Origin: a virus
UHGV virus genome: UHGV-0126275
Length of the DNA: 43,021 nt
Reading direction: 5' to 3' (one strand)
Shown here in pieces: positions 5,698-43,021 of this stretch. The notes below the pieces were generated by a model. It searched no databases and had not been told where the DNA came from. It was given only the letters and a program-made list of their open reading frames with translations. The position numbers and the translations under genes were made by a program. Numbering within the stretch: the first letter of the stretch is position 1; each line of letters begins with the position of its first letter.

Positions 5698-5716
5698 AAC
5701 TTGTTACCTCGGTCTG

Positions 5717-5793
5717 TTACCGTTGAGGTAATAATTATGCTTATTTGGTTTGGTGTCAATAGATATGAGTTAAAAAAATTACCCGTAAGGTAA
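5717..5793. promoter_or_regulatory. Left operator pair: two copies of the palindrome TTACC-N5-GGTAA (5717..5731 and 5779..5793)
   Basis: TTACCgttgaGGTAA and TTACCcgtaaGGTAA bracket the candidate leftward promoter, one over the -10 and one just upstream of the -35. Confidence 0.6.
5731..5759 (-). promoter_or_regulatory. Candidate leftward early promoter (-35 TTGACA, 17-nt spacer, -10 AATTAT on the minus strand)
   Basis: Read from the reverse complement; flanked by palindromes at 5717..5731 and 5779..5793. Confidence 0.5.
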
Positions 5794-5804
5794 TCTATCT
5801 GGCA

Positions 5805-5850: not shown

Positions 5851-6435
5851 TTATTGTTTGCTTTTTTCGTTCTGGTTGATGACAAATTCAATGTAACTTT
5901 CGATCTTTGCTTTCTCGGTTTCGGGTAACAATGCGTAGCGTGAGCGGTCATAGTTGATAGTCGCAGGGTCGTGCGGGTGAATCAGTAGTTCATATCCGTG
6001 ACGCCCGAATGCGGATGCAACATTCTCCAGAGTGGAAATGGAAACGCTGACCTCATTGTTTAACAGGCGGCTGATTGTCACCTGGGCGACGCCGGATGCG
6101 CGGTGAAGTTTTCCCTGTGTTGAAAGGTCGCGGCTTTCGCTCATCCAGCGTTCCAGGTTGTGAGCCGCCAGCTGACCTATATCGCTCGGGCCGACAGGCT
6201 GAAAACCCTCCTGAGAAAGCGAACGATCAATATCAAGCCAGTTACGGGGTTTATTGGCGGCAGCTTCAATTTTTCGTGCAACCTGGTCGCCGATAACCTT
6301 CTTGCCAAGAGCCCAGCGGTTTACCAGATTTGCCTGAGTTCCAAGTTTTTCTGCCATCCGCGTCTGAACACCATTGAATTCACGGTCGATCAAGTCGTTG
6401 AGATTTTGCCTGCGGACGTCCTGGATACTTTTCAT
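5851..6435 (-). CDS. Prophage repressor, tandem HTH (XRE-type) domains, no LexA-like peptidase S24 domain
   Basis: 194 aa; HTH-like segments 'VQTRMAEKLGTQANLVNRW' and 'LHRASGVAQVTISRLLNNE'; no Ser/Lys autocleavage domain; divergent from the Cro-like gene. Confidence 0.75.
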   Translation of the reverse strand: MKSIQDVRRQNLNDLIDREFNGVQTRMAEKLGTQANLVNRWALGKKVIGDQVARKIEAAANKPRNWLDIDRSLSQEGFQPVGPSDIGQLAAHNLERWMSESRDLSTQGKLHRASGVAQVTISRLLNNEVSVSISTLENVASAFGRHGYELLIHPHDPATINYDRSRYALLPETEKAKIESYIEFVINQNEKSKQ

Positions 6436-6490
6436 TTTCTGGAAAATCGCCTCATATATGAATCAGTAGATGATTCAATTTAAAGCAATA

Positions 6491-6553
6491 TTACCCAACA
6501 GGTAAATGCACCCCGTAGGTAACTATCCTTGATTTTTGTTACCTTATGGGTGA
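6491..6553. promoter_or_regulatory. Right operator pair in the repressor/cro divergent region (6491..6505 exact; 6539..6553 with one mismatch)
   Basis: TTACCcaacaGGTAA and TTACCttatgGGTGA; the second overlaps a candidate rightward promoter (TTGTTA-N17-TATTAT). Confidence 0.6.
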
Positions 6554-6589: not shown

Positions 6590-6820
6590 ATGAGCGATAA
6601 CGGACATTTCGATTTCAAAAAGCACTGGCTTGCACTTACTCCGGATGAGCGTGAAGCCTTCGCACAGGAAGCCGGAACGACGAGTCACTATATCCAGACT
6701 CACTTAACAGGTAAGCGCAAAATGCCAGGTAAGGTATTGATGAATGGGCTTTTTAAAGCCTGTAAAACAAGACAATGGCTGCGCTCAAAAGCAGAACTGG
6801 CATACTTCTTCTACTCATGA
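6590..6820 (+). CDS. Cro-like / small DNA-binding early regulator
   Basis: 76-aa ORF divergent from the repressor gene, followed by a terminator; assignment is mainly positional. Confidence 0.5.
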   Translation: MSDNGHFDFKKHWLALTPDEREAFAQEAGTTSHYIQTHLTGKRKMPGKVLMNGLFKACKTRQWLRSKAELAYFFYS

Positions 6821-15759: not shown

Positions 15760-15836
15760 TGGCGTGGCATGCAGGATTCGAACCTGCGACCAACCGCTTA
15801 GAAGGCGGTTGCTCTGTCCAACTGAGCTAATGCCAC
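15760..15836 (-). tRNA. tRNA-Arg (anticodon UCU), phage-encoded, argU-like
   Basis: Reverse complement folds as a cloverleaf: acceptor GTGGCAT/ATGCCAC, D-arm GCTC-AGTTGGACA-GAGC, anticodon stem ACCGC/GCGGT with loop CTTCTAA, T-arm GCAGG-TTCGAAT-CCTGC, encoded CCA end. Confidence 0.9.
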
Positions 15837-32059: not shown

Positions 32060-32144
32060 TATTCGGAATTGTATTGTTCGGAAGAATAATAAAATAACTA
32101 GTTAATTTGTGGATTGGTGCTGTTTTTCCATGATAGGGGTAATT

Positions 32145-32525
32145 ATGAGAAAAGTATTTTTGATTTTTGGATTTATGCTTCTCGTTGGATGCCAGTCAGC
32201 TGCACAGTTTGAAAGAAATATGCTTACGTGGCGCGGGCAGAGTATAGACGCAATGGTTCAGCAGTGGGGGTATCCTCAGGGAGAGCTTACATCTCCAGAT
32301 GGAAACAGAGTGTATGTTTACTCAAGCTCTGGTAGTTATAACGTACCACAAACCACAACGTATAATACTACGTCTAATCTAATTGGTAATACTATATATT
32401 CAAACACATACGCAACAACTGATGGCGGTTATACACTCCATTTCAGTTGCTCTGTTTACGTTGAGTTTGGTGCTGATAAGATTATTAAAAATGTTACATG
32501 GCGCGGTAATAATTGCGTTGCGTGA
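32145..32525 (+). CDS. Lipoprotein (accessory/moron gene)
   Basis: Start at 'MRKVFLIFGFMLLVGCQSA' (lipobox LVGC); stop codon embedded in the 12-bp palindrome; terminator follows. Confidence 0.6.
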   Translation: MRKVFLIFGFMLLVGCQSAAQFERNMLTWRGQSIDAMVQQWGYPQGELTSPDGNRVYVYSSSGSYNVPQTTTYNTTSNLIGNTIYSNTYATTDGGYTLHFSCSVYVEFGADKIIKNVTWRGNNCVA

Positions 32526-32627: not shown

Positions 32628-33263
32628 CTATTTTATTGGCAGCTTATGCTTTGAAATTATGGCCAATCTGTTTTGGAAGTTTTCCGCATCACCCCACAAC
32701 CAGGTTTCACCTTTCTCAAGTTCTTCCTCGTTATTCATCTCTATAAGTTCGCATGTCATCATGTCGTAACCATAGAGATGGAGGCCAAGTTCCAGTGCGT
32801 CATACATGCGAGCCTGCCAGAACGACATGCCTTCATGAGTCTGGTTGCGATCAGACACGATGATATCGTACCGTTCCAAGAGGTAGTTCATGAAGATGAT
32901 GCCAGCGAAATCATGAAGCACAGCACGATGCTTAGGCTTCTGGGTTCTCCATACCAATATCTGCGTGACAGGACGGCAGTTAAGATAGCTGTCAGGCTGG
33001 ATAATGACACGATTGTAATACACTACCTCTTCGGTGAGGTCATTTATCAATGACAGTTCAAAGTGCGCCTGTGGAATCTCGCCTTTCTTACGATCGTCTA
33101 CACGGACAACGCGGTATCCAGGAGCCAGAGAAACGCCTTTGACATCAGATGTGACATCGTTGCCGTTCACTAACTCTGAATACAGGGCGCGGTTGTCTGG
33201 AGTTTCGTTCAGATGAGCGAAAACCTCAGTTACCTTTGCCGGATTCAGCAGTTGTTGTGGCAT
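32628..33263 (-). CDS. Hypothetical protein (211 aa), stand-alone accessory gene
   Basis: ORF with GAGGTG RBS, own candidate promoter and terminator; no recognisable motif. Confidence 0.6.
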   Translation of the reverse strand: MPQQLLNPAKVTEVFAHLNETPDNRALYSELVNGNDVTSDVKGVSLAPGYRVVRVDDRKKGEIPQAHFELSLINDLTEEVVYYNRVIIQPDSYLNCRPVTQILVWRTQKPKHRAVLHDFAGIIFMNYLLERYDIIVSDRNQTHEGMSFWQARMYDALELGLHLYGYDMMTCELIEMNNEEELEKGETWLWGDAENFQNRLAIISKHKLPIK

Positions 33264-33491: not shown

Positions 33492-34184
33492 TCAGAAGAA
33501 CCCTGCTTTGTCGTTGATATACTCCGCGTGGGTCTGGATATCACGCAGGCATTTGCTCACACCGACGATGTAGCAGAACATGGTGGTCAGCTCCGCCGCC
33601 GCGCCCGATACGTCGTGCCCGTCGTCCTGTAACTGGTTCAGCAGATTCATCAGCAGTGAGTTCTCCGTCAGGCCGAGAACACCAGACGGCGAGTGAATCA
33701 GGCTGCGGTAGCCGGGCTTCAGCGGGGCGCTGTAGGTTTTGTTCTCTATCTTCATTGCCTGCATTACTGCTGACGCCGTGGCGTTGGCTACCTGGTCGGC
33801 AACCATCTTTATGCGTTCTTCCTGCGGGAGCGAGTTTTTAATGTAACTTCCGGTGCGGCGGATCTGAGGAAGAACCTCACCTGTAACCCATTCAAGAAAT
33901 CTGAATGCTCTCGTTCCCTCAGTCATTGCCTCTTTGCAACGCAGAATAAGGATGTAGAGACCTGATTCTGAAACGATGGATAGTTCTTGTATTCCACCAG
34001 GGGTCTGTATTGAATACAGCCCCTTTTTGTTCCAGCCTTTTTTATCAAGTTTTCTCGCTTGTGTAACATCAATATTCAAAGCATTGCACACATCTTTGGT
34101 GACAAACCAAGGTTCTCCGTCAATCATGAACATACGGATCTGGCAGGATGACTCAAAGGAAAAGATGGAAGGTTTGGTATTCAT
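33492..34184 (-). CDS. Bro-N domain protein (antirepressor-like) with C-terminal domain paralogous to the small protein at 35331..35588
   Basis: Start at 'MNTKPSIFSFESSCQIRMFMIDGEPWFVTKDVCNALNI' (Bro-N signature); AAGGTG RBS. Confidence 0.7.
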   Translation of the reverse strand: MNTKPSIFSFESSCQIRMFMIDGEPWFVTKDVCNALNIDVTQARKLDKKGWNKKGLYSIQTPGGIQELSIVSESGLYILILRCKEAMTEGTRAFRFLEWVTGEVLPQIRRTGSYIKNSLPQEERIKMVADQVANATASAVMQAMKIENKTYSAPLKPGYRSLIHSPSGVLGLTENSLLMNLLNQLQDDGHDVSGAAAELTTMFCYIVGVSKCLRDIQTHAEYINDKAGFF

Positions 34185-34451
34185 AGCGATCACCTTTGTA
34201 GTTAGGTTAATCACCACCGCTGAGACCAATCAGATGGTGGTGAACTGTGCAGAGTTGGTCTTACCGGCTACAAAGGAACCCGGCGCACCTTTCGGTGCCC
34301 CCACACAGCCCACCATAGAATAGGTGCGCTTTACACATAAAAAAACCGCTTATGCGGCATATGTGCCTCTGTAGTAATCCGGGAGACCAATCCCGGCACT
34401 GGATTTTGCCAGTGCCCGATTACTATGGCACAAGAGGAGTGCGATGTAAAT

Positions 34452-34559
34452 TTACCGCAAAGGTAATGATAAACGCGAAGAAATATTAAAATCAACCGTA
34501 TTTGGTTGATTGCGTTTAACGCTTGATCACCTGAAAGCAAGATATTACCTTTAAGGTAA
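34452..34559. promoter_or_regulatory. Two TTACC-N5-GGTAA palindromes (34452..34466, 34545..34559) in the divergent region between the Bro-N gene and the zinc-ribbon gene
   Basis: TTACCgcaaaGGTAA and TTACCtttaaGGTAA. Confidence 0.5.
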
Positions 34560-34579
34560 TGTTATTGTGAGGAAAAGCA

Positions 34580-35308
34580 ATGGAAGTTTTCTGGATAGTT
34601 GTTGGTGTGGTTGCGGTGATTATTTACGTTATCAACCAGAACAAGACTAAGATCTCTGATCGTACGGTCGTTAATCATAACAAAACGATAAAGACCGAAG
34701 ATGGGGAGATAACGATTAATCGTACACAGGTGATAGAACACACCTCTACTCAGTTTCAAAAAACTGGAGGTAATGCGCCTAATATTTCCGCACCTCCTGC
34801 TTATGATAGTGCGGTAATCCAGACATATTATAAACAGCAGGAGTTAGCAAAAGAGAGGCAACTGATTCAGCCAAAGCCGTTTACAGCTGAGCTTCCACCT
34901 GGAGTGTCAACGCGTCCGGCATATCATGGAAGATTCCCTGGTGATGACATATCGTCTCAGTCATCTAAAAAAGCACCTCAGGCAGTATCAGAGCCAGCAA
35001 GAATACCTTCTGTATCGCCGCCAAAAGAAGAATCAGCTAACAGAGTTTCAAGTGGCCGCAAGCAGTGTTTGCGATGCAGAATAAACCTTCCATATGACAA
35101 ATTCCGGAAATCGTCAAAAAATCCAGATGGATTGACTAAGTGGTGTGCAAGGTGTCTCGATGGCCCAAAGAATACACGCCATATGAAGTGGTGCCCAATT
35201 TGTAATGTCCGCAGAAAACGGACCAGCTTTTACCCTAATAATCAAAATGCGGACGGCTTAATGGCATGGTGCAAAACGTGCTGGGACGAGCACAAAGCGA
35301 AACGATAG
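34580..35308 (+). CDS. Membrane-anchored protein with tandem C-terminal CxxC-x22-CxxC zinc ribbons
   Basis: N-terminal 'VFWIVVGVVAVIIYVI' TM helix; Pro/Ser-rich linker; 'CLRC...WCARC' and 'CPIC...WCKTC' repeats each containing 'DGL'. Confidence 0.65.
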   Translation: MEVFWIVVGVVAVIIYVINQNKTKISDRTVVNHNKTIKTEDGEITINRTQVIEHTSTQFQKTGGNAPNISAPPAYDSAVIQTYYKQQELAKERQLIQPKPFTAELPPGVSTRPAYHGRFPGDDISSQSSKKAPQAVSEPARIPSVSPPKEESANRVSSGRKQCLRCRINLPYDKFRKSSKNPDGLTKWCARCLDGPKNTRHMKWCPICNVRRKRTSFYPNNQNADGLMAWCKTCWDEHKAKR

Positions 35309-35324
35309 GCCGCTCTTGCGGCCT
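35308..35324. terminator. Hairpin between the convergent zinc-ribbon and antirepressor-like genes
   Basis: GGCCGC-TCTT-GCGGCC with weak T-run. Confidence 0.45.
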
Positions 35325-35330
35325 TTAAAT

Positions 35331-35588
35331 TTACCGGGTTTGTTTTCGTAATTGTTCGGCACAATAGTCGAGATGTGTTTGCAGATCCTGCATAGACATC
35401 TGTGAGCTGGTGACGTAGTTAATCAGTGCAGTCAGTTCGGCAAGTGGGCCATCGACATTAAATCCATCCTTATCGAGATCCCGGAGTAATTTCATCAAGT
35501 GCGATCCCTCCACCAGTGACCTGACGCCTCCCGGCGTGTGAATCCTTTCGGTAAATCCGTCTTCCAGTGGATAGTGATACTGCTGCAT
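35331..35588 (-). CDS. Small antirepressor-like protein (about 85 aa), LexA-box-controlled
   Basis: Start at 'MQQYHYP' (GGAGAAG RBS); homologous to the C-terminal domain of the Bro-N protein; LexA box 22 bp upstream. Confidence 0.6.
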   Translation of the reverse strand: MQQYHYPLEDGFTERIHTPGGVRSLVEGSHLMKLLRDLDKDGFNVDGPLAELTALINYVTSSQMSMQDLQTHLDYCAEQLRKQTR

Positions 35589-35609
35589 CTTATCTTCTCC
35601 ATGCAATAA

Positions 35610-35625
35610 CTGTATGTTTATACAG
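35610..35625. promoter_or_regulatory. LexA (SOS) box CTGT-N8-ACAG
   Basis: aaCTGTatgtttatACAGta; near-consensus with AT-rich spacer, just upstream of the small antirepressor-like gene. Confidence 0.7.
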
Positions 35626-35664
35626 TAACAAATAATTTGTTTGCTATCCAGCACGTTTTGCAAA

Positions 35665-35679
35665 TTACCCGAAAGGTAA
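35665..35679. promoter_or_regulatory. TTACC-N5-GGTAA palindrome upstream of the antirepressor-like gene
   Basis: aTTACCcgaaaGGTAAt. Confidence 0.5.
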
Positions 35680-35783
35680 TATCTATTGGTATTTATAGTC
35701 TTTTTATCCATATATGGTTTTTCAGGTAATAGAATAACCAGATATGCGGCGCAACGGGTGCTGCGACTATCTGGAGATTTAAC

Positions 35784-38700
35784 ATGACGGTCTCAACCGA
35801 AGTTGACCACAACGAATACACCGGTAACGGCGTTACGACATCGTTTCCGTATACTTTTCGAATTTTCAGAAAATCAGACCTGGTTGTTCAGGTGTCTGAT
35901 CTGAACGGAAACGTAACAGAATTGGTCCTGGATACCGGTTATACGGTAACTGGGGCGGGCACTTATAGTGGCGGTTCTGTGGTTCTTCCGTCTCCGCTTG
36001 CTACTGGATGGCGAATTACGATAGATCGTGTGCTTGATGTAGTGCAGGACACAGACCTTCGCAATCAGGGAAAATTTTTCCCCGAAGTGCATGAAGATGC
36101 CTTTGACTACCTGACGATGCTGATCCAGCAATGTTTTGGGTGGTTCAGACGTGCATTGATGAAACCATCTTTGCTTGCAAAATATTACGATGCAAAGCAA
36201 AACAAAATTTCTAACCTTGCAGATCCATCATTTGAGCAGGACGCTGTAAATAATCGCTCAATGCGTAATTATGTCGATGCTGCAATCGCCGGAGTTGTTG
36301 GTGGTTTTGGTTGGTTTATTCAGTATGGTTCTGGGGCTGTGTACCGAACGTTCCAGGATAAAATGCGTGATGCTATTAGCCCCAAAGATTTTGGAGCTGT
36401 TGGTGATGGTATAAATGACGATTCCACTGCAATAAGCGCGTGCCTTGAAGCCTCATCTCCAGGTTATAAAATTGACGGATTAGGGCTTACTTTTAAAGTA
36501 TCAACTCTTCCGGATGTCAGTCGATTTAAAAATGCTCGTTTTTTATTTGAGAGAATACCGGGCCAGCCTCTTTTTTATGCTTCTGAAGATTTTATCCAGG
36601 GAGAGTTATTTAAAATTACAGATACACCGTGGTACAACGCCTGGACGCAGGATAAAACGTTTGTATATGACAATGTCATCTATGCGCCTTTTATGGCTGG
36701 AGACCGCCATGGTGTAAATAACCTCCATGTTGCATGGGTTCGCTCAGGAGATGACGGGAAGACCTGGACAACGCCGGAATGGCTTACAGATTTACATGAA
36801 AACTATCCCACAGTTAACTATCACTGCATGAGTATGGGGGTTGTCAGAAATCGCCTTTTTGCTGTAATTGAGACGCGGACCGTGAGAGGAAATAAACTGC
36901 AGGTTGCAGAGTTGTGGGATCGCCCAATGAGTCGCAGCCTTCGCGTTTATGGTGGTATAACGAAAGCAGCAAATCAGCAAGTCGCTTATATTCGCATTAC
37001 TGATCACGGATTATTTGCTGGTGATTTTGTCAACTTCTCAAACTCTGGTGTTACAGGTGTTACCGGGAATATGACGGTGACTACTGTTATTGATAAAAAT
37101 ACCTTTACAGTTACGACGCAAAATACCCAGGATGTGGATCAGAATAACGAGGGTAGATACTGGAGTTTTGGCACATCATTTCACTCGTCACCATGGAGAA
37201 AAACCAGTCTTGGAACTATTCCTTCTTTTGTTGACGGAAGCACTCCTGTTACTGAGATTCACAGTTTTGCGACGATTAGCGATAACAGTTTTGCTGTTGG
37301 CTACCATAATGGTGATATTGGTCCACGCGAGCTTGGGATACTCTATTTCTCTGATGCTTTCGGTTCTCCTGGTAGCTTTGTTCGCAGACGCATACCTGTA
37401 GAATATGAGGCGAATGCATCTGAGCCATGTGTAAAATATTATGATGGCATTCTGTATCTGACGACCAGGGGGACATTAAGTACTCAACCCGGTAGTTCAT
37501 TGCACAGAAGCTCTGATTTAGGTACATCATGGAATTCTCTTCGCTTCCCAAATAATGTTCATCACTCAAACCTTCCTTTTGCCAAAGTTGGCGATGAGCT
37601 GATTATTTTTGGCAGTGAGCGCGCATTTGGTGAGTGGGAAGGAGGAGAACCTGATAACCGTTATGCAGGAAATTATCCAAGAACATTTATGACCAGAGTT
37701 AACGTCAATGAGTGGAGTCTGGATAATGTAGAGTGGGTTAATGTTACTGATCAGATTTATCAGGGCGGAATAGTTAACTCTGCGGTTGGTGTTGGTTCAG
37801 TTTGTATCAAAGACAACTGGCTGTACTACATTTTCGGTGGGGAAGACTTTCTAAACCCATGGAGCATAGGGGATAACAACAGAAAATATCCTTATGTTCA
37901 CGATGGTCACCCGGCTGATTTGTATTGTTTCAGGGTGAAAATTAAACAGGAAGAATTTGTTTCAAGGGATTTTGTCTACGGAGCCACTCCTAACAGAACG
38001 CTTCCTACTTTTATGTCGACGTCAGGCGTGAGGACGGTTCCTGTACCCGTTGATTTCACAGATGATGTTGCCGTCCAGTCACTGACTGTCCATGCAGGTA
38101 CATCAGGACAAGTTCGCGCGGAAGTCAAACTTGAGGGTAATTACGCCATTATTGCGAAGAAAGTACCGTCTGATGATGTTACCGCTCAGAGATTAATCGT
38201 TAGCGGCGGTGAAACAACGTCTTCAGCAGATGGTGCAATGATAACGTTGCATGGTTCCGGAAGCAGTACTCCACGTCGCGCGGTATATAACGCACTCGAA
38301 CATCTTTTTGAGAACGGAGATGTTAAACCTTATCTTGATAATGTAAATGCTCTTGGTGGTCCGGGAAACAGGTTCTCGACAGTTTATCTTGGCTCCAATC
38401 CTGTGGTTACCAGTGACGGAACATTAAAGACAGAGCCGGTCTCTCCTGACGAAGCATTGCTGGATGCCTGGGGTGACGTCAGGTATATCGCTTATAAATG
38501 GCTGAACGCTGTCGCTATAAAGGGGGAAGAAGGGGCGAGGATACATCATGGTGTAATCGCGCAGCAACTTCGTGATGTTCTTATTTCTCACGGACTCATG
38601 GAAGAAGAAAGCACAACATGCTGCTATGCCTTTCTTTGCTATGACGATTATCCCGCAGTATATGATGACGTCATTACTGGCCAAAGGGAAATGCCGCTGA

Positions 38701-38903
38701 CTGATAATGACGGGAGCATCATTGTTGATGAGGATGATAATCCAGTGATGGTAATAGAAGACATCATTGAGCGCGTTGAAATAACGCCAGCAGGATCTAG
38801 ATGGGGGGTCAGACCTGATCTCTTATTCTATATCGAGGCAGCATGGCAGCGCAGAGAAATGGATAAGATAAAAGAGCGGGTTCAGTCTCTGGAAGAACGT
38901 TAA
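35784..38903 (+). CDS. Tailspike / tail fibre: T7 gp17-like N-terminal adaptor domain, Asp-box (sialidase-like) central region, C-terminal intramolecular chaperone (peptidase S74-like) domain
   Basis: 1039 aa; Asp-box-like 'SGDDGKTW' and 'SSDLGTSW'; 'VVTSDGTLK' (Ser-x4-Lys dyad, Ser codon at about 38412) followed by 'GVIAQQLRDVL', as in endosialidase-type chaperone domains. Confidence 0.75.
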   Translation: MTVSTEVDHNEYTGNGVTTSFPYTFRIFRKSDLVVQVSDLNGNVTELVLDTGYTVTGAGTYSGGSVVLPSPLATGWRITIDRVLDVVQDTDLRNQGKFFPEVHEDAFDYLTMLIQQCFGWFRRALMKPSLLAKYYDAKQNKISNLADPSFEQDAVNNRSMRNYVDAAIAGVVGGFGWFIQYGSGAVYRTFQDKMRDAISPKDFGAVGDGINDDSTAISACLEASSPGYKIDGLGLTFKVSTLPDVSRFKNARFLFERIPGQPLFYASEDFIQGELFKITDTPWYNAWTQDKTFVYDNVIYAPFMAGDRHGVNNLHVAWVRSGDDGKTWTTPEWLTDLHENYPTVNYHCMSMGVVRNRLFAVIETRTVRGNKLQVAELWDRPMSRSLRVYGGITKAANQQVAYIRITDHGLFAGDFVNFSNSGVTGVTGNMTVTTVIDKNTFTVTTQNTQDVDQNNEGRYWSFGTSFHSSPWRKTSLGTIPSFVDGSTPVTEIHSFATISDNSFAVGYHNGDIGPRELGILYFSDAFGSPGSFVRRRIPVEYEANASEPCVKYYDGILYLTTRGTLSTQPGSSLHRSSDLGTSWNSLRFPNNVHHSNLPFAKVGDELIIFGSERAFGEWEGGEPDNRYAGNYPRTFMTRVNVNEWSLDNVEWVNVTDQIYQGGIVNSAVGVGSVCIKDNWLYYIFGGEDFLNPWSIGDNNRKYPYVHDGHPADLYCFRVKIKQEEFVSRDFVYGATPNRTLPTFMSTSGVRTVPVPVDFTDDVAVQSLTVHAGTSGQVRAEVKLEGNYAIIAKKVPSDDVTAQRLIVSGGETTSSADGAMITLHGSGSSTPRRAVYNALEHLFENGDVKPYLDNVNALGGPGNRFSTVYLGSNPVVTSDGTLKTEPVSPDEALLDAWGDVRYIAYKWLNAVAIKGEEGARIHHGVIAQQLRDVLISHGLMEEESTTCCYAFLCYDDYPAVYDDVITGQREMPLTDNDGSIIVDEDDNPVMVIEDIIERVEITPAGSRWGVRPDLLFYIEAAWQRREMDKIKERVQSLEER

Positions 38904-41007: not shown

Positions 41008-41161
41008 CATGGCATTTTTCATGGTACTGATTTCCGGTGACGGTATATAAAACGGTACGGGAAAAATTGAGATTTGGAAAAATGTTATCACTCAATTGGT
41101 TATGGTTATCGTAAATAATTGAGTGGGAATGATTTGAACCCTGCACTATGAATGAACAAAA

Positions 41162-41187
41162 CCCTCTGTTACTACAGAGGGTTTTTT
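41162..41187. terminator. Bidirectional rho-independent terminator at the prophage/host junction
   Basis: CCCTCTG-TTACTA-CAGAGGG flanked by an A-tract upstream and TTTTTT downstream. Confidence 0.7.
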
Positions 41188-41225
41188 ATACTCACGAATC
41201 ATAGGCTTGAAGTTACTGACATCGC

Positions 41226-41765
41226 TTAGTTAAACCAGCTGTCCGATTTGTTCTCTTCTGCTTTACCCACGCTTTTCATCAGATCGCGACCGCCTTCAGT
41301 CATATTTCTGTTTGCGTCAGCTTCAGATTGCACCACATCGGTTTGCGCAGCTTTGTGCTTCAGTTCCTGATCGATAAATTCGTTTTCGCGCTTGACGCGG
41401 GCTTCTTCTTTCGCCAGCGCCAGTTTTTGTTTCTGAATCTCTAAGCTGCGTAGCTCATCTTCATAACTTTGATCGCGTTTTTTGTCCGCAGTGGCTTCGG
41501 CGTCCAGTTTATCCTGACGAGCTTTCTTATTCGCCGCTGCCGTTGCCGCTCTTTTATTAGCCGCGGCCTGGGCGTTTGCGCGACGTTGCTTCTCTTGCTG
41601 GATTTCCCTGTTGCGCTCCGCGACCCATTCGTCATGCTGCCTTTGCTCTTCATTTTTACCTTGCTGTTCCGCTTCTGCGACAGCCGAGAGTTGATCCTGC
41701 AATGATGAGGCGATAGCCGGATAGCTTAAGGAGGCTAAGATGGCGCAAAGAAAAACTTTCTTCAT
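41226..41765 (-). CDS. Secreted coiled-coil Lys/Ala/Glu-rich protein (probable host gene)
   Basis: Signal peptide 'MKKVFLCAILASLSYPAIA'; charged low-complexity body. Confidence 0.5.
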   Translation of the reverse strand: MKKVFLCAILASLSYPAIASSLQDQLSAVAEAEQQGKNEEQRQHDEWVAERNREIQQEKQRRANAQAAANKRAATAAANKKARQDKLDAEATADKKRDQSYEDELRSLEIQKQKLALAKEEARVKRENEFIDQELKHKAAQTDVVQSEADANRNMTEGGRDLMKSVGKAEENKSDSWFN

Positions 41766-41780
41766 GACTCCTCCTGATCA

Positions 41781-42299
41781 TTAGCTCTTTTCAGGACATT
41801 TCGTATTTGGCTGAATACGCGTTTCGTTATACGTCGTGGTAATAACAACGGCTAAAGCTGTCGTAAACTGGCACTCTTTACCCACCTGGGTGGAGGTATA
41901 CACTTTGGTGCCTTCCTTATACGTTAGAGAAACACCTTCCACTAAGGTTTTATCATTCACCATAGAACCCGCTGCCGCGCCAACAGCTCCGCCGCCAACT
42001 GCACCTGCCGTCGTTCCGGAATTGCTGCCAGACCCCACGTTGTGGCCGATTACACCGCCAGCGACTGCACCAATAAGCGCGCCGAAGGCTTGTGCGTTTC
42101 GTTTATTTTGGGAGTTGTCTACGGCAACTTTTGCGGGAAGAATGGAAATAATATTAACGGTTTTAGTTTCTTGTTTGGTATTCAGTTGATCGGTTTGATA
42201 AACATCGGCGGCATGATCATCAGCATTTGACTGGCATCCTGCCAGAGTGAATGACGCTAACATTGCCACAGGCAGAAGACATTTTTTAAATTTCATCAC
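41781..42299 (-). CDS. Glycine-zipper lipoprotein (YcfJ-like; probable host gene)
   Basis: Lipobox 'FTLAGCQ'; 'GALIGAVAGGVIGHNVGSG...GAVGGGAVGAAAG' glycine-zipper segment. Confidence 0.6.
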   Translation of the reverse strand: MMKFKKCLLPVAMLASFTLAGCQSNADDHAADVYQTDQLNTKQETKTVNIISILPAKVAVDNSQNKRNAQAFGALIGAVAGGVIGHNVGSGSNSGTTAGAVGGGAVGAAAGSMVNDKTLVEGVSLTYKEGTKVYTSTQVGKECQFTTALAVVITTTYNETRIQPNTKCPEKS

Positions 42300-43021
42300 T
42301 ATTCCTTGTTATACACATTACGAAAAATAAGACATTTAAGATCATCAAAAGAGGAAAGTAAATGTATTGCGTATAAAGGAATAGATTAAATTTATTAAAA
42401 TTCATGCGGGAAATAATTTATAAAAATACATCATCACAACATATGTATTAATGATGTATTTATTTCGCAGCCGAACAGGATGAACTTCAGTCAGAACAAA
42501 GACGTAAAATTTAAGATGAAAGAATATCTGCCGCTTTGATAATCTCAAAGAGCAAAAGCATCCGACAGCGAGGTGCCGTTATGTTCTGTGAGAGTGGAGA
42601 AGGTAACCGCTAACGTTGTACCGGTGATTCGACGGAGAGTGTGGATTGCTGAGCTTCTTTTTTGCTCTGATGGTGCTGCCAGGCACCGACGGACGAGTAG
42701 ATAAAACGGCCAAAGAAGAAGATAAAGCTGATGAGCAGTACGATACGGGTCATGCGACTGTTAAATCGGTGTCGTTTTCGCATACTGGTTGCCTGACTCA
42801 CAAAAGGTTCCTTGAAGTATGTCCCACGCCGTGGACGGTACTTACATTAAGGCACAACAGGACAAAATGGTCAATTCTTCGTTATGTAAAAAAGCGTCAG
42901 TGGATACATATTTTAATGTTATGGAAGTTAATTTAATTATTTACAATGATGATGTAATAATGATGAGTTAACATGATAAACGTAATAATTCATTAGTCAG
43001 GGTTATTTTGTTTGATATATA

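Follow-up and report, generated by a model that had tools for sequence, protein, structure and literature searches.

The best described counterpart of the locus analysed here is the Ant-Rep-LexA switch of phage SPC32H, which is said to have been worked out by the genetics of Kim and Ryu in 2013 and by the structures 5D50 and 5D4Z of Kim and co-workers in 2016. In that phage, the LexA site reportedly overlaps the promoter of the antirepressor gene, ant, and the 2013 study is said to have found that, with a point mutation in this site, Ant becomes constitutive and the phage turns lytic; the Ant-driven release of Rep was reportedly demonstrated in 2016 by the crystal structure 5D50 and by biochemistry. 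The SPC32H repressor binds DNA as a tetramer, which is broken when an Ant tetramer binds two Rep dimers (PMC9638917). Ant traps Rep by conformational change and not by occlusion of the DNA-binding surface (bioRxiv 10.1101/2025.11.27.690993). In these Salmonella phages, self-cleavage of LexA allows the antirepressor to be made, which then inhibits the repressor by protein-protein contact (PMC7380047). A LexA-controlled antirepressor logic has also been described for GfoA, GftA and GfhA of the Gifsy-1, -2 and -3 prophages (Lemire et al. 2011, PMC3121763), and for Tum of coliphage 186, which acts against a CI that is itself not cleavable (Shearwin et al. 1998, cited in PMC7380047).

The DNA studied is the virus genome UHGV-0126275, taken as a single stretch of 43,021 nucleotides that is referred to below as the window. 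It shares 91-98% DNA identity with the Escherichia phages TL-2011b, EC.W1-9, ZX5 and phiV10, is syntenic, down to the divergent arrangement of ant and the tailspike gene, with phiV10, TL-2011b, epsilon15 and SPC32H, and is assigned by this resemblance to a phiV10/epsilon15-like prophage of E. coli, genus Uetakevirus (epsilon15-like podoviruses). Our main finding is that this prophage very probably carries, next to its tailspike gene, an SOS-responsive induction trigger that is orthologous to the SPC32H switch. The features on which this reading is built are as follows.

35331-35588, minus strand: ant, an 85-aa antirepressor gene (stop codon included), recognised by homology to SPC32H Ant
35597-35600, minus strand: ribosome-binding site (RBS) GGAG, 8 nt before the ant ATG, invariant in an alignment of nine sequences
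35610-35625: LexA (SOS) box with the 16-mer core CTGTATGTTTATACAG, read directly
35622-35650, minus strand: candidate ant promoter, from a relaxed hexamer scan and the nine-sequence alignment
35307-35324: GC-rich hairpin between ant and a convergent 242-aa ORF, from a terminator scan
35784-38903: tailspike gene, with its ATG at 35784, divergent from ant
5851-6435, minus strand: rep, the 194-aa prophage repressor with two HTH-type domains and no S24, the predicted target of Ant
6590-6820: cro-like gene, divergent from rep
50-1306: integrase gene

The att core, with the sequence given for phiV10, epsilon15 and ZX5 (PMC9782041), is present once in the window, at 41118-41134; considering this position together with that of the integrase gene, the window comprises an integrated prophage that is almost complete, together with about 1.9 kb of DNA from the host. 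The ant gene is flanked on one side by the end of the late (virion) operon and on the other by the tailspike gene, from which it is divergent across an intergenic region of 195 bp, which is the position that characterises an SPC32H-type Ant; 3.4 kb of extra DNA separates the last late gene from ant, and the distance from ant to rep is 29 kb. The hairpin between ant and the convergent ORF is likely a bidirectional terminator, and a homologous hairpin (GGCCGC...GCGGCC) is found 3' of ant in SPC32H and is marked as a terminator in the epsilon15 annotation. As for the tailspike, its N-terminus is of the epsilon15 type, and the phiV10 record remarks the same similarity; joined to it is a complete endosialidase with an S74 chaperone domain. 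The tailspike is a K1-capsule endosialidase.

The ant reading frame starts with the ATG at 35588-35586, ends with the TAA at 35333-35331, and encodes a protein of the sequence MQQYHYPLEDGF...KQTR. A previous sequence-only reading of this DNA had claimed an ORF of roughly 85 aa with a strong RBS, and both claims agree with the minus-strand frame of exactly 85 aa and with the GGAG at 35600-35597. The mechanical ORF list also offered a longer frame of 126 aa that opens with an ATG at 35711, and this was rejected as ant. This ATG is not the ant start, because it lies beyond the promoter and its frame would run through the LexA box, and because the homologues start at the internal ATG; the ant CDS of SPC32H indeed begins at the ATG homologous to 35588. 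By tblastn, the protein is 88% identical over 83 aa to the product of SPC32H_020, which is annotated in GenBank as ‘ant: anti-repressor protein’, and by phmmer it matches chain E (‘Anti-repressor protein’) of PDB 5D50 with an E-value of 3.5e-47. It also covers 85 of the 88 profile positions of phrog_450 (E=5.1e-48), and is 100% identical to unannotated ORFs in phages ZX5 and TL-2011b. No Pfam match of Ant exceeded the cut-off, a match to DUF724 being dismissed as noise (17.5 bits against a cut-off of 38.4), and a search for Pfam or NCBIfam models of the Ant family returned none. Judged by this homology, the small protein is an SPC32H-type Ant (Uetakevirus; PHROG 450).

The box in front of ant had been called near-consensus and was said to lie 22 bp upstream of the ORF. 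The distance is correct as the difference between 35610 and 35588, i.e., 21 intervening bases, and the resemblance to the consensus was borne out by each of the stricter searches. On the plus strand, the 20-mer at 35608-35627 reads aaCTGTatgtttatACAGta. The bare motif CTGT-N8-ACAG occurs three times in the window, where 0.69 occurrences would be expected, and 2 of 100 shuffles had as many as three; when the full 20-bp consensus TACTGTATATATATACAGTA was used with up to 3 mismatches, this was the sole site in the window, with 0 expected from 100 shuffles. A position matrix was then derived from 19 E. coli SOS boxes, which were taken from the literature and not drawn from a database. On this 19-box matrix the site scored 25.7 bits, level with the best of the training sites, as compared with 12.1 bits for the runner-up site in the window and a maximum of 18.9 bits in 200 shuffled windows, making it the single outlier; in the same scan of the window, no further LexA box above 12.1 bits was found before the second antirepressor gene described below, before rep or before cro.

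The intergenic region was aligned across nine sequences, namely the window, phiV10, SPC32H, epsilon15, the Enterobacter phages Tyrion and BUCT554, and three Klebsiella phages, and the position of the box was found to be kept throughout this set, which spans four host genera. Of the two arms, the right one is ATACAGT in every sequence of the set; the left one is TACTGT without exception in the six phages of E. coli, Salmonella and Enterobacter, and TATATGT in the three Klebsiella phages. The central 6 to 8 bases, on the other hand, vary freely (ATAAAC, GTATTT, ATGTTT, ATAAGC, ACATAT, ATATAT). Constant arms around a variable centre are what one would expect to see if selection were maintaining a LexA site. 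Furthermore, SPC32N and SPC32H differ in the homologous region by one base only, ACAG>AAAG, which falls inside the box and matches the mutation that the 2013 study is said to have described.

A default sigma-70 scan of positions 35200-35900 returned no promoter. The candidate obtained by the relaxed scan consists of a -35 hexamer TGGATA (35650-35645), a 17-nt spacer, a TG dinucleotide (35630-35629) and a -10 hexamer TACTGT (35627-35622); by consensus it is weak, with 7 of 12 matches plus the TG. The positions of the -35, TG and -10 elements are nonetheless kept in 9/9 aligned sequences, the -35 block reading TGGAAA in the Klebsiella phages, and the spacer is constant in its length of 17 nt but not in its sequence. 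Other candidates, including TTGCAA-18-CAAATT, were rejected on the ground that their -10 is not kept among the relatives. We infer from these elements that the ant promoter is of the extended -10 type and that the left arm of the LexA box serves as its -10, in which case bound LexA would occlude it.

The predicted target of Ant, the repressor Rep, was examined in the same manner. Residues 1-190 match chain A (‘Repressor’) of PDB 5D50 with an E-value of 3.5e-42, and the C-terminal half matches 5D4Z, the Rep C-terminal domain, with 3.6e-20. Pfam HTH_3 was found at residues 106-147 (38.5 bits, cut-off 23), while residues 1-76 gave weaker HTH-type matches, including a YdaS-like one of 20.9 bits that is below cut-off, and matched PHROG ‘transcriptional repressor’ families with E-values of 1e-10 to 1e-11. 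The S24 C-terminal domain that defines a repressor of the lambda-type SOS induction was absent from the Pfam matches of Rep, and when LexA, UmuD and lambda CI were searched by tblastn against six frames of the whole window, the best E-value was 3.5. The repressor with two HTH domains and no peptidase S24, as proposed from the letters alone, is thus confirmed by the HTH_3 and HTH-type segments and the empty S24 searches, and the logic built on it, that of an SOS box, a small antirepressor and a non-cleavable repressor, is supported by direct orthology and not by analogy alone, as both proteins match chains of one and the same Rep-Ant complex, 5D50. The repressor is 99.5% identical to those of phiV10 and ZX5, and 42.7% identical to its SPC32H orthologue, which is annotated as rep in GenBank. 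Homologues of Ant were retrieved in 35 phage records and those of Rep in 36, essentially the same genomes, and in every E. coli phage with this Rep allele, Ant is kept at 97-100% protein identity.

The sites at which such a repressor would act are suggested by a recurrent palindrome, ATTACC-N5-GGTAAT, of which the window contains 4 exact copies against 0.01 expected, and 16 copies within 2 mismatches against 1.2 expected. The copies relevant here are listed below.

35664-35680: 17-bp palindrome ATTACCCGAAAGGTAAT, between the divergent ant and tailspike promoters, presumed Rep operator
5716-5732 (1 mismatch) and 5778-5794 (exact): two palindromes where the leftward early operon begins, just past the 3' end of rep
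6490-6506: palindrome ATTACCCAACAGGTAAA, in the rep-cro intergenic region
34451-34467 (1 mismatch) and 34544-34560 (exact): two palindromes upstream of an isrK-type RNA and of the divergent 242-aa ORF
8895: palindrome before the gene at this position
12997 and 13015: palindromes before the small terminase gene
16158: palindrome before the portal region

It is to be noted that these palindromes stand at the heads of transcription units. The one next to ant is 13 bp upstream of the proposed ant -35 and is kept in 9/9 aligned sequences. Homologous sites carry the label ‘protein_bind: repressor’ in the epsilon15 GenBank record, where sites are annotated at the positions matching the 5716/5778 pair. 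The ATTACC-N5-GGTAAT palindromes are predicted to be Rep operators.

When these elements are put together, the following course of induction can be envisaged. In the lysogen, Rep, lacking an autocleavage domain, would keep the lytic promoters closed by means of the 17-bp operators, and LexA of the host would occupy the box at 35610-35625, which overlaps the -10 TACTGT and the start region, and so hold ant silent; the silencing by LexA is deduced from the sequence, its conservation and the SPC32H/SPC32N pair. Upon DNA damage, activated RecA would bring about the self-cleavage of LexA, and ant would be transcribed. The resulting Ant tetramer would bind the C-terminal domains of two Rep dimers, whereby the DNA-binding Rep tetramer would be broken up; by homology to SPC32H, Rep would then leave its operators and the lytic genes would be turned on. 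For this particular pair, Ant-Rep binding is an extrapolation, since Rep is a more distant relative of its SPC32H counterpart (42.7% identity) than Ant (88%). That this divergence would be an obstacle is made less likely by the shared distribution of Ant and Rep homologues over phage records and by the 97-100% identity of Ant wherever this Rep allele is found.

The extra DNA next to ant contains a second antirepressor gene, 1.1 kb to the left of ant and on the same strand, together with two putative regulatory RNAs, both of which are located in the leader of this gene:

33492-34184, minus strand: second antirepressor gene, 230 aa, with a Bro-N domain and an Ant-like C-terminal domain
34415-34339, minus strand: isrK-type Hfq-binding RNA with a terminator, an Rfam match at gathering level (74.7 bits)
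34320-34233, minus strand: C4 antisense RNA of the P1/P7 type, Rfam RF01695 (78.6 bits, gathering score 45)

Pfam recognised Bro-N in the 230-aa protein with an E-value of 1.8e-13. Its C-terminal domain aligns with the small Ant over 74 aa at 42% identity (E=1e-15), matches 5D50_E (E=1.6e-13), and retains the 21 alignment columns in which the small Ants show no variation. The protein as a whole is 80% identical to ORF4 of ZX5, the C-terminal 107 aa being identical, and overexpression of ZX5 ORF4 reduced lysogens from 10^9 to 10^6 (PMC9782041). Within the leader, the C4 loop CCUUUGUAG and the 9 nt CUACAAAGG at the RBS of the gene (34201-34193) are perfect complements, as are the C4 segment UCACCACC and the 8 nt GGUGGUGA (34218-34211), 10 nt upstream of the RBS match. 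A promoter-like sequence, TTTACA-17-CATAGT, was recognised by eye adjoining the palindrome at 34451-34467, about 7 nt before the 5' end of isrK. An isrK-C4-ant cassette lies beside the small ant in five relatives, namely ZX5, TL-2011b, phiV10, Tyrion and a Klebsiella phage; in the SPC32H and epsilon15 records, no such second antirepressor gene was found next to ant.

The second antirepressor could share the inducing role or take it over. As a tentative proposal, to which we give less than even chances, a subset of these phages (this prophage, ZX5, TL-2011b, Tyrion and the Klebsiella relatives) may possess a two-tier antirepression circuit in which the LexA-gated small Ant acts first. The small Ant would strip Rep from the palindromes before isrK and thereby unlock the second antirepressor, in which the same Rep-binding fold is combined with a Bro-N domain and which would be gated further by C4 and isrK. 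If so, the circuit would provide a feed-forward commitment step, or else an anti-immunity function on superinfection, and the small Ant would correspond to the C-terminal domain of a larger Ant in the style of P1/P22, occurring on its own. A precedent for a second antirepressor is FsoA of Fels-1, which is controlled by the repressor and not by LexA (PMC3121763).

The presence of two antirepressors raises the alternative that the small Ant is only a conserved relic, that the effective inducer for the diverged Rep is the Bro-N antirepressor, and that the gene under the LexA box is irrelevant to induction. Such a view would draw on the 42.7% identity of Rep to the SPC32H Rep, the one shown to bind Ant, and on the 1000-fold fall in lysogen count when the ZX5 Bro-N antirepressor was overexpressed (PMC9782041). 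We nevertheless consider it improbable, as a relic would hardly be expected to be 97-100% identical in every E. coli phage with this Rep allele and to have kept its LexA box, RBS and promoter elements intact, and the ant module is found in 531/5426 complete E. coli genomes, mostly at 95-100% identity. The Bro-N gene, moreover, has no LexA box of its own, the best other site scoring 12.1 bits, and alone it therefore gives no route from DNA damage to induction. Finally, in phiV10, where Rep is 99.5% the same, the Bro-N protein has no tblastn match to the small Ant, i.e., no detectable Ant-like C-terminal domain.

Even less credit is due to the idea that ant is not the sole target of the LexA box, which would instead control the divergent tailspike operon or both genes. 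The box does lie in the 195-bp divergent intergenic region that ant and the tailspike gene have in common, but only 21 nt separate it from the ant ATG and the conserved ant -10 lies within its reach by direct overlap, whereas the best candidate promoter in the tailspike sense, TCCATA-17-TAGAAT (35707-35735), has its -35 about 80 bp away, with the box upstream of it. LexA represses by occlusion, and repression from such a distance cannot work. The SPC32N box mutation, a sequence difference that was itself observed here, is also reported to derepress ant. The last alternative, that the palindromic box arose by chance in front of a small ORF without expression, appears next to untenable: the bare CTGT-N8-ACAG motif, occurring 3 times, is indeed not significantly above chance, but the matrix score is far above those of all shuffles, the arms are conserved around a variable spacer in nine phages of four host genera, and the orthologous Ant protein has been crystallised together with its target. 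The reading that we retain is the one stated at the outset, that of an SOS-responsive trigger acting through the small Ant.

LexA-gated antirepression of a non-cleavable repressor is already known in this phage genus, and the locus itself is not new, since it is orthologous to the switch of SPC32H, with its genetics of 2013 and structure of 2016. What has escaped annotation is its spread. Of 5426 complete E. coli genomes, 531 contain a 453-bp segment consisting of ant and the intergenic region, mostly with 95-100% identity, and in those 531 genomes, as well as in phiV10, TL-2011b and ZX5, ant is labelled ‘hypothetical protein’, a label that we attribute to the lack of a Pfam or NCBIfam model for the Ant family. 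The 2022 study of lysis and lysogeny in ZX5, the Ant of which is identical to the present one, makes no mention of the small ant, LexA or SPC32H (PMC9782041). Recognising ant predicts that these widespread E. coli prophages would be SOS-inducible, for example by fluoroquinolones. The practical value of the finding is one of annotation; what modest interest remains attaches to the unannotated occurrence of the module across E. coli and to the neighbouring second antirepressor with its putative control by RNA.

Comparison with the known systems places the two antirepressors differently. In the immI region of P1, the c4 antisense RNA, icd and ant follow one another, and C4 loops face the RBS region of ant. 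It is the second antirepressor gene only that follows this P1/P7 design here, with C4 upstream and its loops complementary to the RBS. The isrK RNA has its parallel in the isrK-orf45-anrP arrangement of Gifsy-1, in which the isrK promoter drives an antirepressor-like gene that is translationally silent until activated (PMC4825925). No homology was found between the Bro-N protein and AnrP of Gifsy-1; its C-terminal domain is of the SPC32H-Ant type, and the gene would be controlled by C4, isrK and Rep.

With respect to the small Ant, the locus had been likened to the Gifsy-type prophages, and this comparison is valid for the functional logic, as both have a LexA-controlled small protein outside the immunity region and a non-cleavable repressor. 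It is, however, a functional analogy only, and the proper reference is the SPC32H/epsilon15 switch. The Gifsy phages are lambdoid siphoviruses with a different repressor family, and a passage of PMC3121763 has their antirepressors most likely interacting as dimers, while in SPC32H both Ant and the Rep on which it acts are tetramers (PMC9638917). The 73-aa ORF of Gifsy-1 beside a dinI homologue (STM2621.1n) is, by its position, presumed to be GftA; BLASTP of Ant against this ORF gave no alignment at E<=100, and tblastn of Ant on a phage collection that included Gifsy-1 had no Gifsy record among its matches. A review calls such Ants ‘homologous to Tum’ (PMC7380047), but no sequence match found here supports that.

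In SPC32H, by contrast, nearly every element recurs. The phage belongs to the same genus, Uetakevirus, and has ant in the same position, divergent from the tailspike gene; the arms of its box are identical and stand at the same distance to the same RBS and ATG, with the same operator-type palindrome upstream. Its Rep has the same two-domain architecture and aligns over the full length, although it is a different allele (42.7%). The differences are these: in the sense of ant, the 8-bp spacer of the box is ATAAACAT here and ATGTTTAT in SPC32H, each being the reverse complement of the other; Ant is here one residue shorter; and the 3.4-kb insertion beside ant, with a second antirepressor putatively under RNA control, is present here and was not found in the SPC32H and epsilon15 records. 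The full-length homology of Ant, a cognate Rep without S24, and a LexA box over the inferred ant promoter together align this prophage with the SPC32H-type systems.

Beside the small ant gene, which encodes the 85-aa antirepressor of this prophage, there lies a second antirepressor module, in which a pair of palindromes resembling the presumed operators of Rep, the prophage repressor, is followed by two small RNAs and a Bro-N gene; the elements of the module and the insert that separates it from small ant are as follows.

33492-34560, minus strand: second antirepressor module (palindromes, then isrK, C4 and the Bro-N gene)
34451 and 34544: two Rep-type palindromes at the head of the module
34415..34339, minus strand: isrK Hfq-binding RNA, downstream of these two palindromes
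34320..34233, minus strand: C4 antisense RNA, between isrK and the Bro-N gene
34580-35308, plus strand: 242-aa ORF, the insert separating the two antirepressor modules

The last 80 amino acids (C-terminal) of the Bro-N gene product are homologous to small Ant, and the ribosome-binding site of the gene is complementary to the loops of C4. The isrK-C4-Bro-N cassette is also found in ZX5, TL-2011b, phiV10, Tyrion and one Klebsiella phage; in the SPC32H and epsilon15 records, no comparable Bro-N-type gene was found adjoining ant. Small ant itself is labelled 'hypothetical protein' throughout E. coli (531 complete RefSeq genomes, plus phiV10, TL-2011b and ZX5), its start is misplaced in the record of the Enterobacter phage Tyrion, leaving a 54-aa CDS, and neither Pfam nor NCBIfam holds a model of the family.

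In the LexA box upstream of small ant, the 8-bp spacer, read in the ant sense, is ATAAACAT in the window (35610-35625) and ATGTTTAT in SPC32H (L002 2458-2473) and epsilon15. The two spacers are exact reverse complements of each other, such that the palindromic box looks as if it had been flipped between the window and these two phages, although four substitutions would explain the difference equally well. The spacers of other relatives are unrelated to either.

Further genes surround this region, and a tRNA gene lies farther off.

32109-32525, plus strand: 138-aa ORF with a GTG start
32628-33263, minus strand: 211-aa protein gene (phrog_1349)
33303 and 33404: Rep-type palindromes upstream of the 211-aa gene
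35784-38903, plus strand: chimeric tailspike gene, epsilon15/phiV10-type N-terminus plus endosialidase
15760-15836, minus strand: tRNA-Arg, anticodon TCT, flanked by the large terminase gene and the portal gene

The 138-aa ORF and the 211-aa gene are extra cargo, placed after the last virion gene and ahead of the antirepressor region; from an internal Met, the former reads MRKVFLIFGFMLLVGC..., resembling a lipobox-containing signal peptide of a lipoprotein. An exact Rep-type palindrome lies upstream of the 242-aa ORF, whose product combines a hydrophobic N-terminal part with two CxxC zinc-ribbon repeats at the C-terminal end; it gives a Pfam Stc1 match below threshold and PHROG endonuclease VII/Lar-like matches, and its own PHROG family is phrog_6762. 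Its TL-2011b counterpart region bears just a misc_feature, 'similar to hypothetical protein'. In the tailspike, the head-binding N-terminal part is of the epsilon15/phiV10 type and the remainder is a complete endosialidase (End_N_terminal, beta-propeller, beta-barrel, tailspike domain and S74 chaperone), which suggests that this temperate podovirus targets the K1 (polysialic acid) capsule. The tRNA is oriented opposite to the late operon.

The att core of phiV10, epsilon15 and ZX5, which insert at the guaA 3' end, is ATTGAGTGGGAATGATT (PMC9782041). It occurs once in the window, at 41118-41134; judged by this match, it is the prophage end, and therefore 41135-43021 is host DNA. The other copy must sit immediately outside the left edge of the window.

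The palindrome ATTACC-N5-GGTAAT, allowing at most two mismatches, occurs at 16 sites in the window against 1.2 expected.

Rep-type palindromes (17-mers): 5716, 5778, 6490, 6875, 8814, 8876, 12997, 13015, 16158, 33404, 34451, 34544, 35664

These palindromes stand at the heads of transcription units, scattered genome-wide, and their homologues in the epsilon15 GenBank record are annotated as repressor-binding sites. The scatter of these putative Rep operators resembles that of the dispersed C1 operators of P1.
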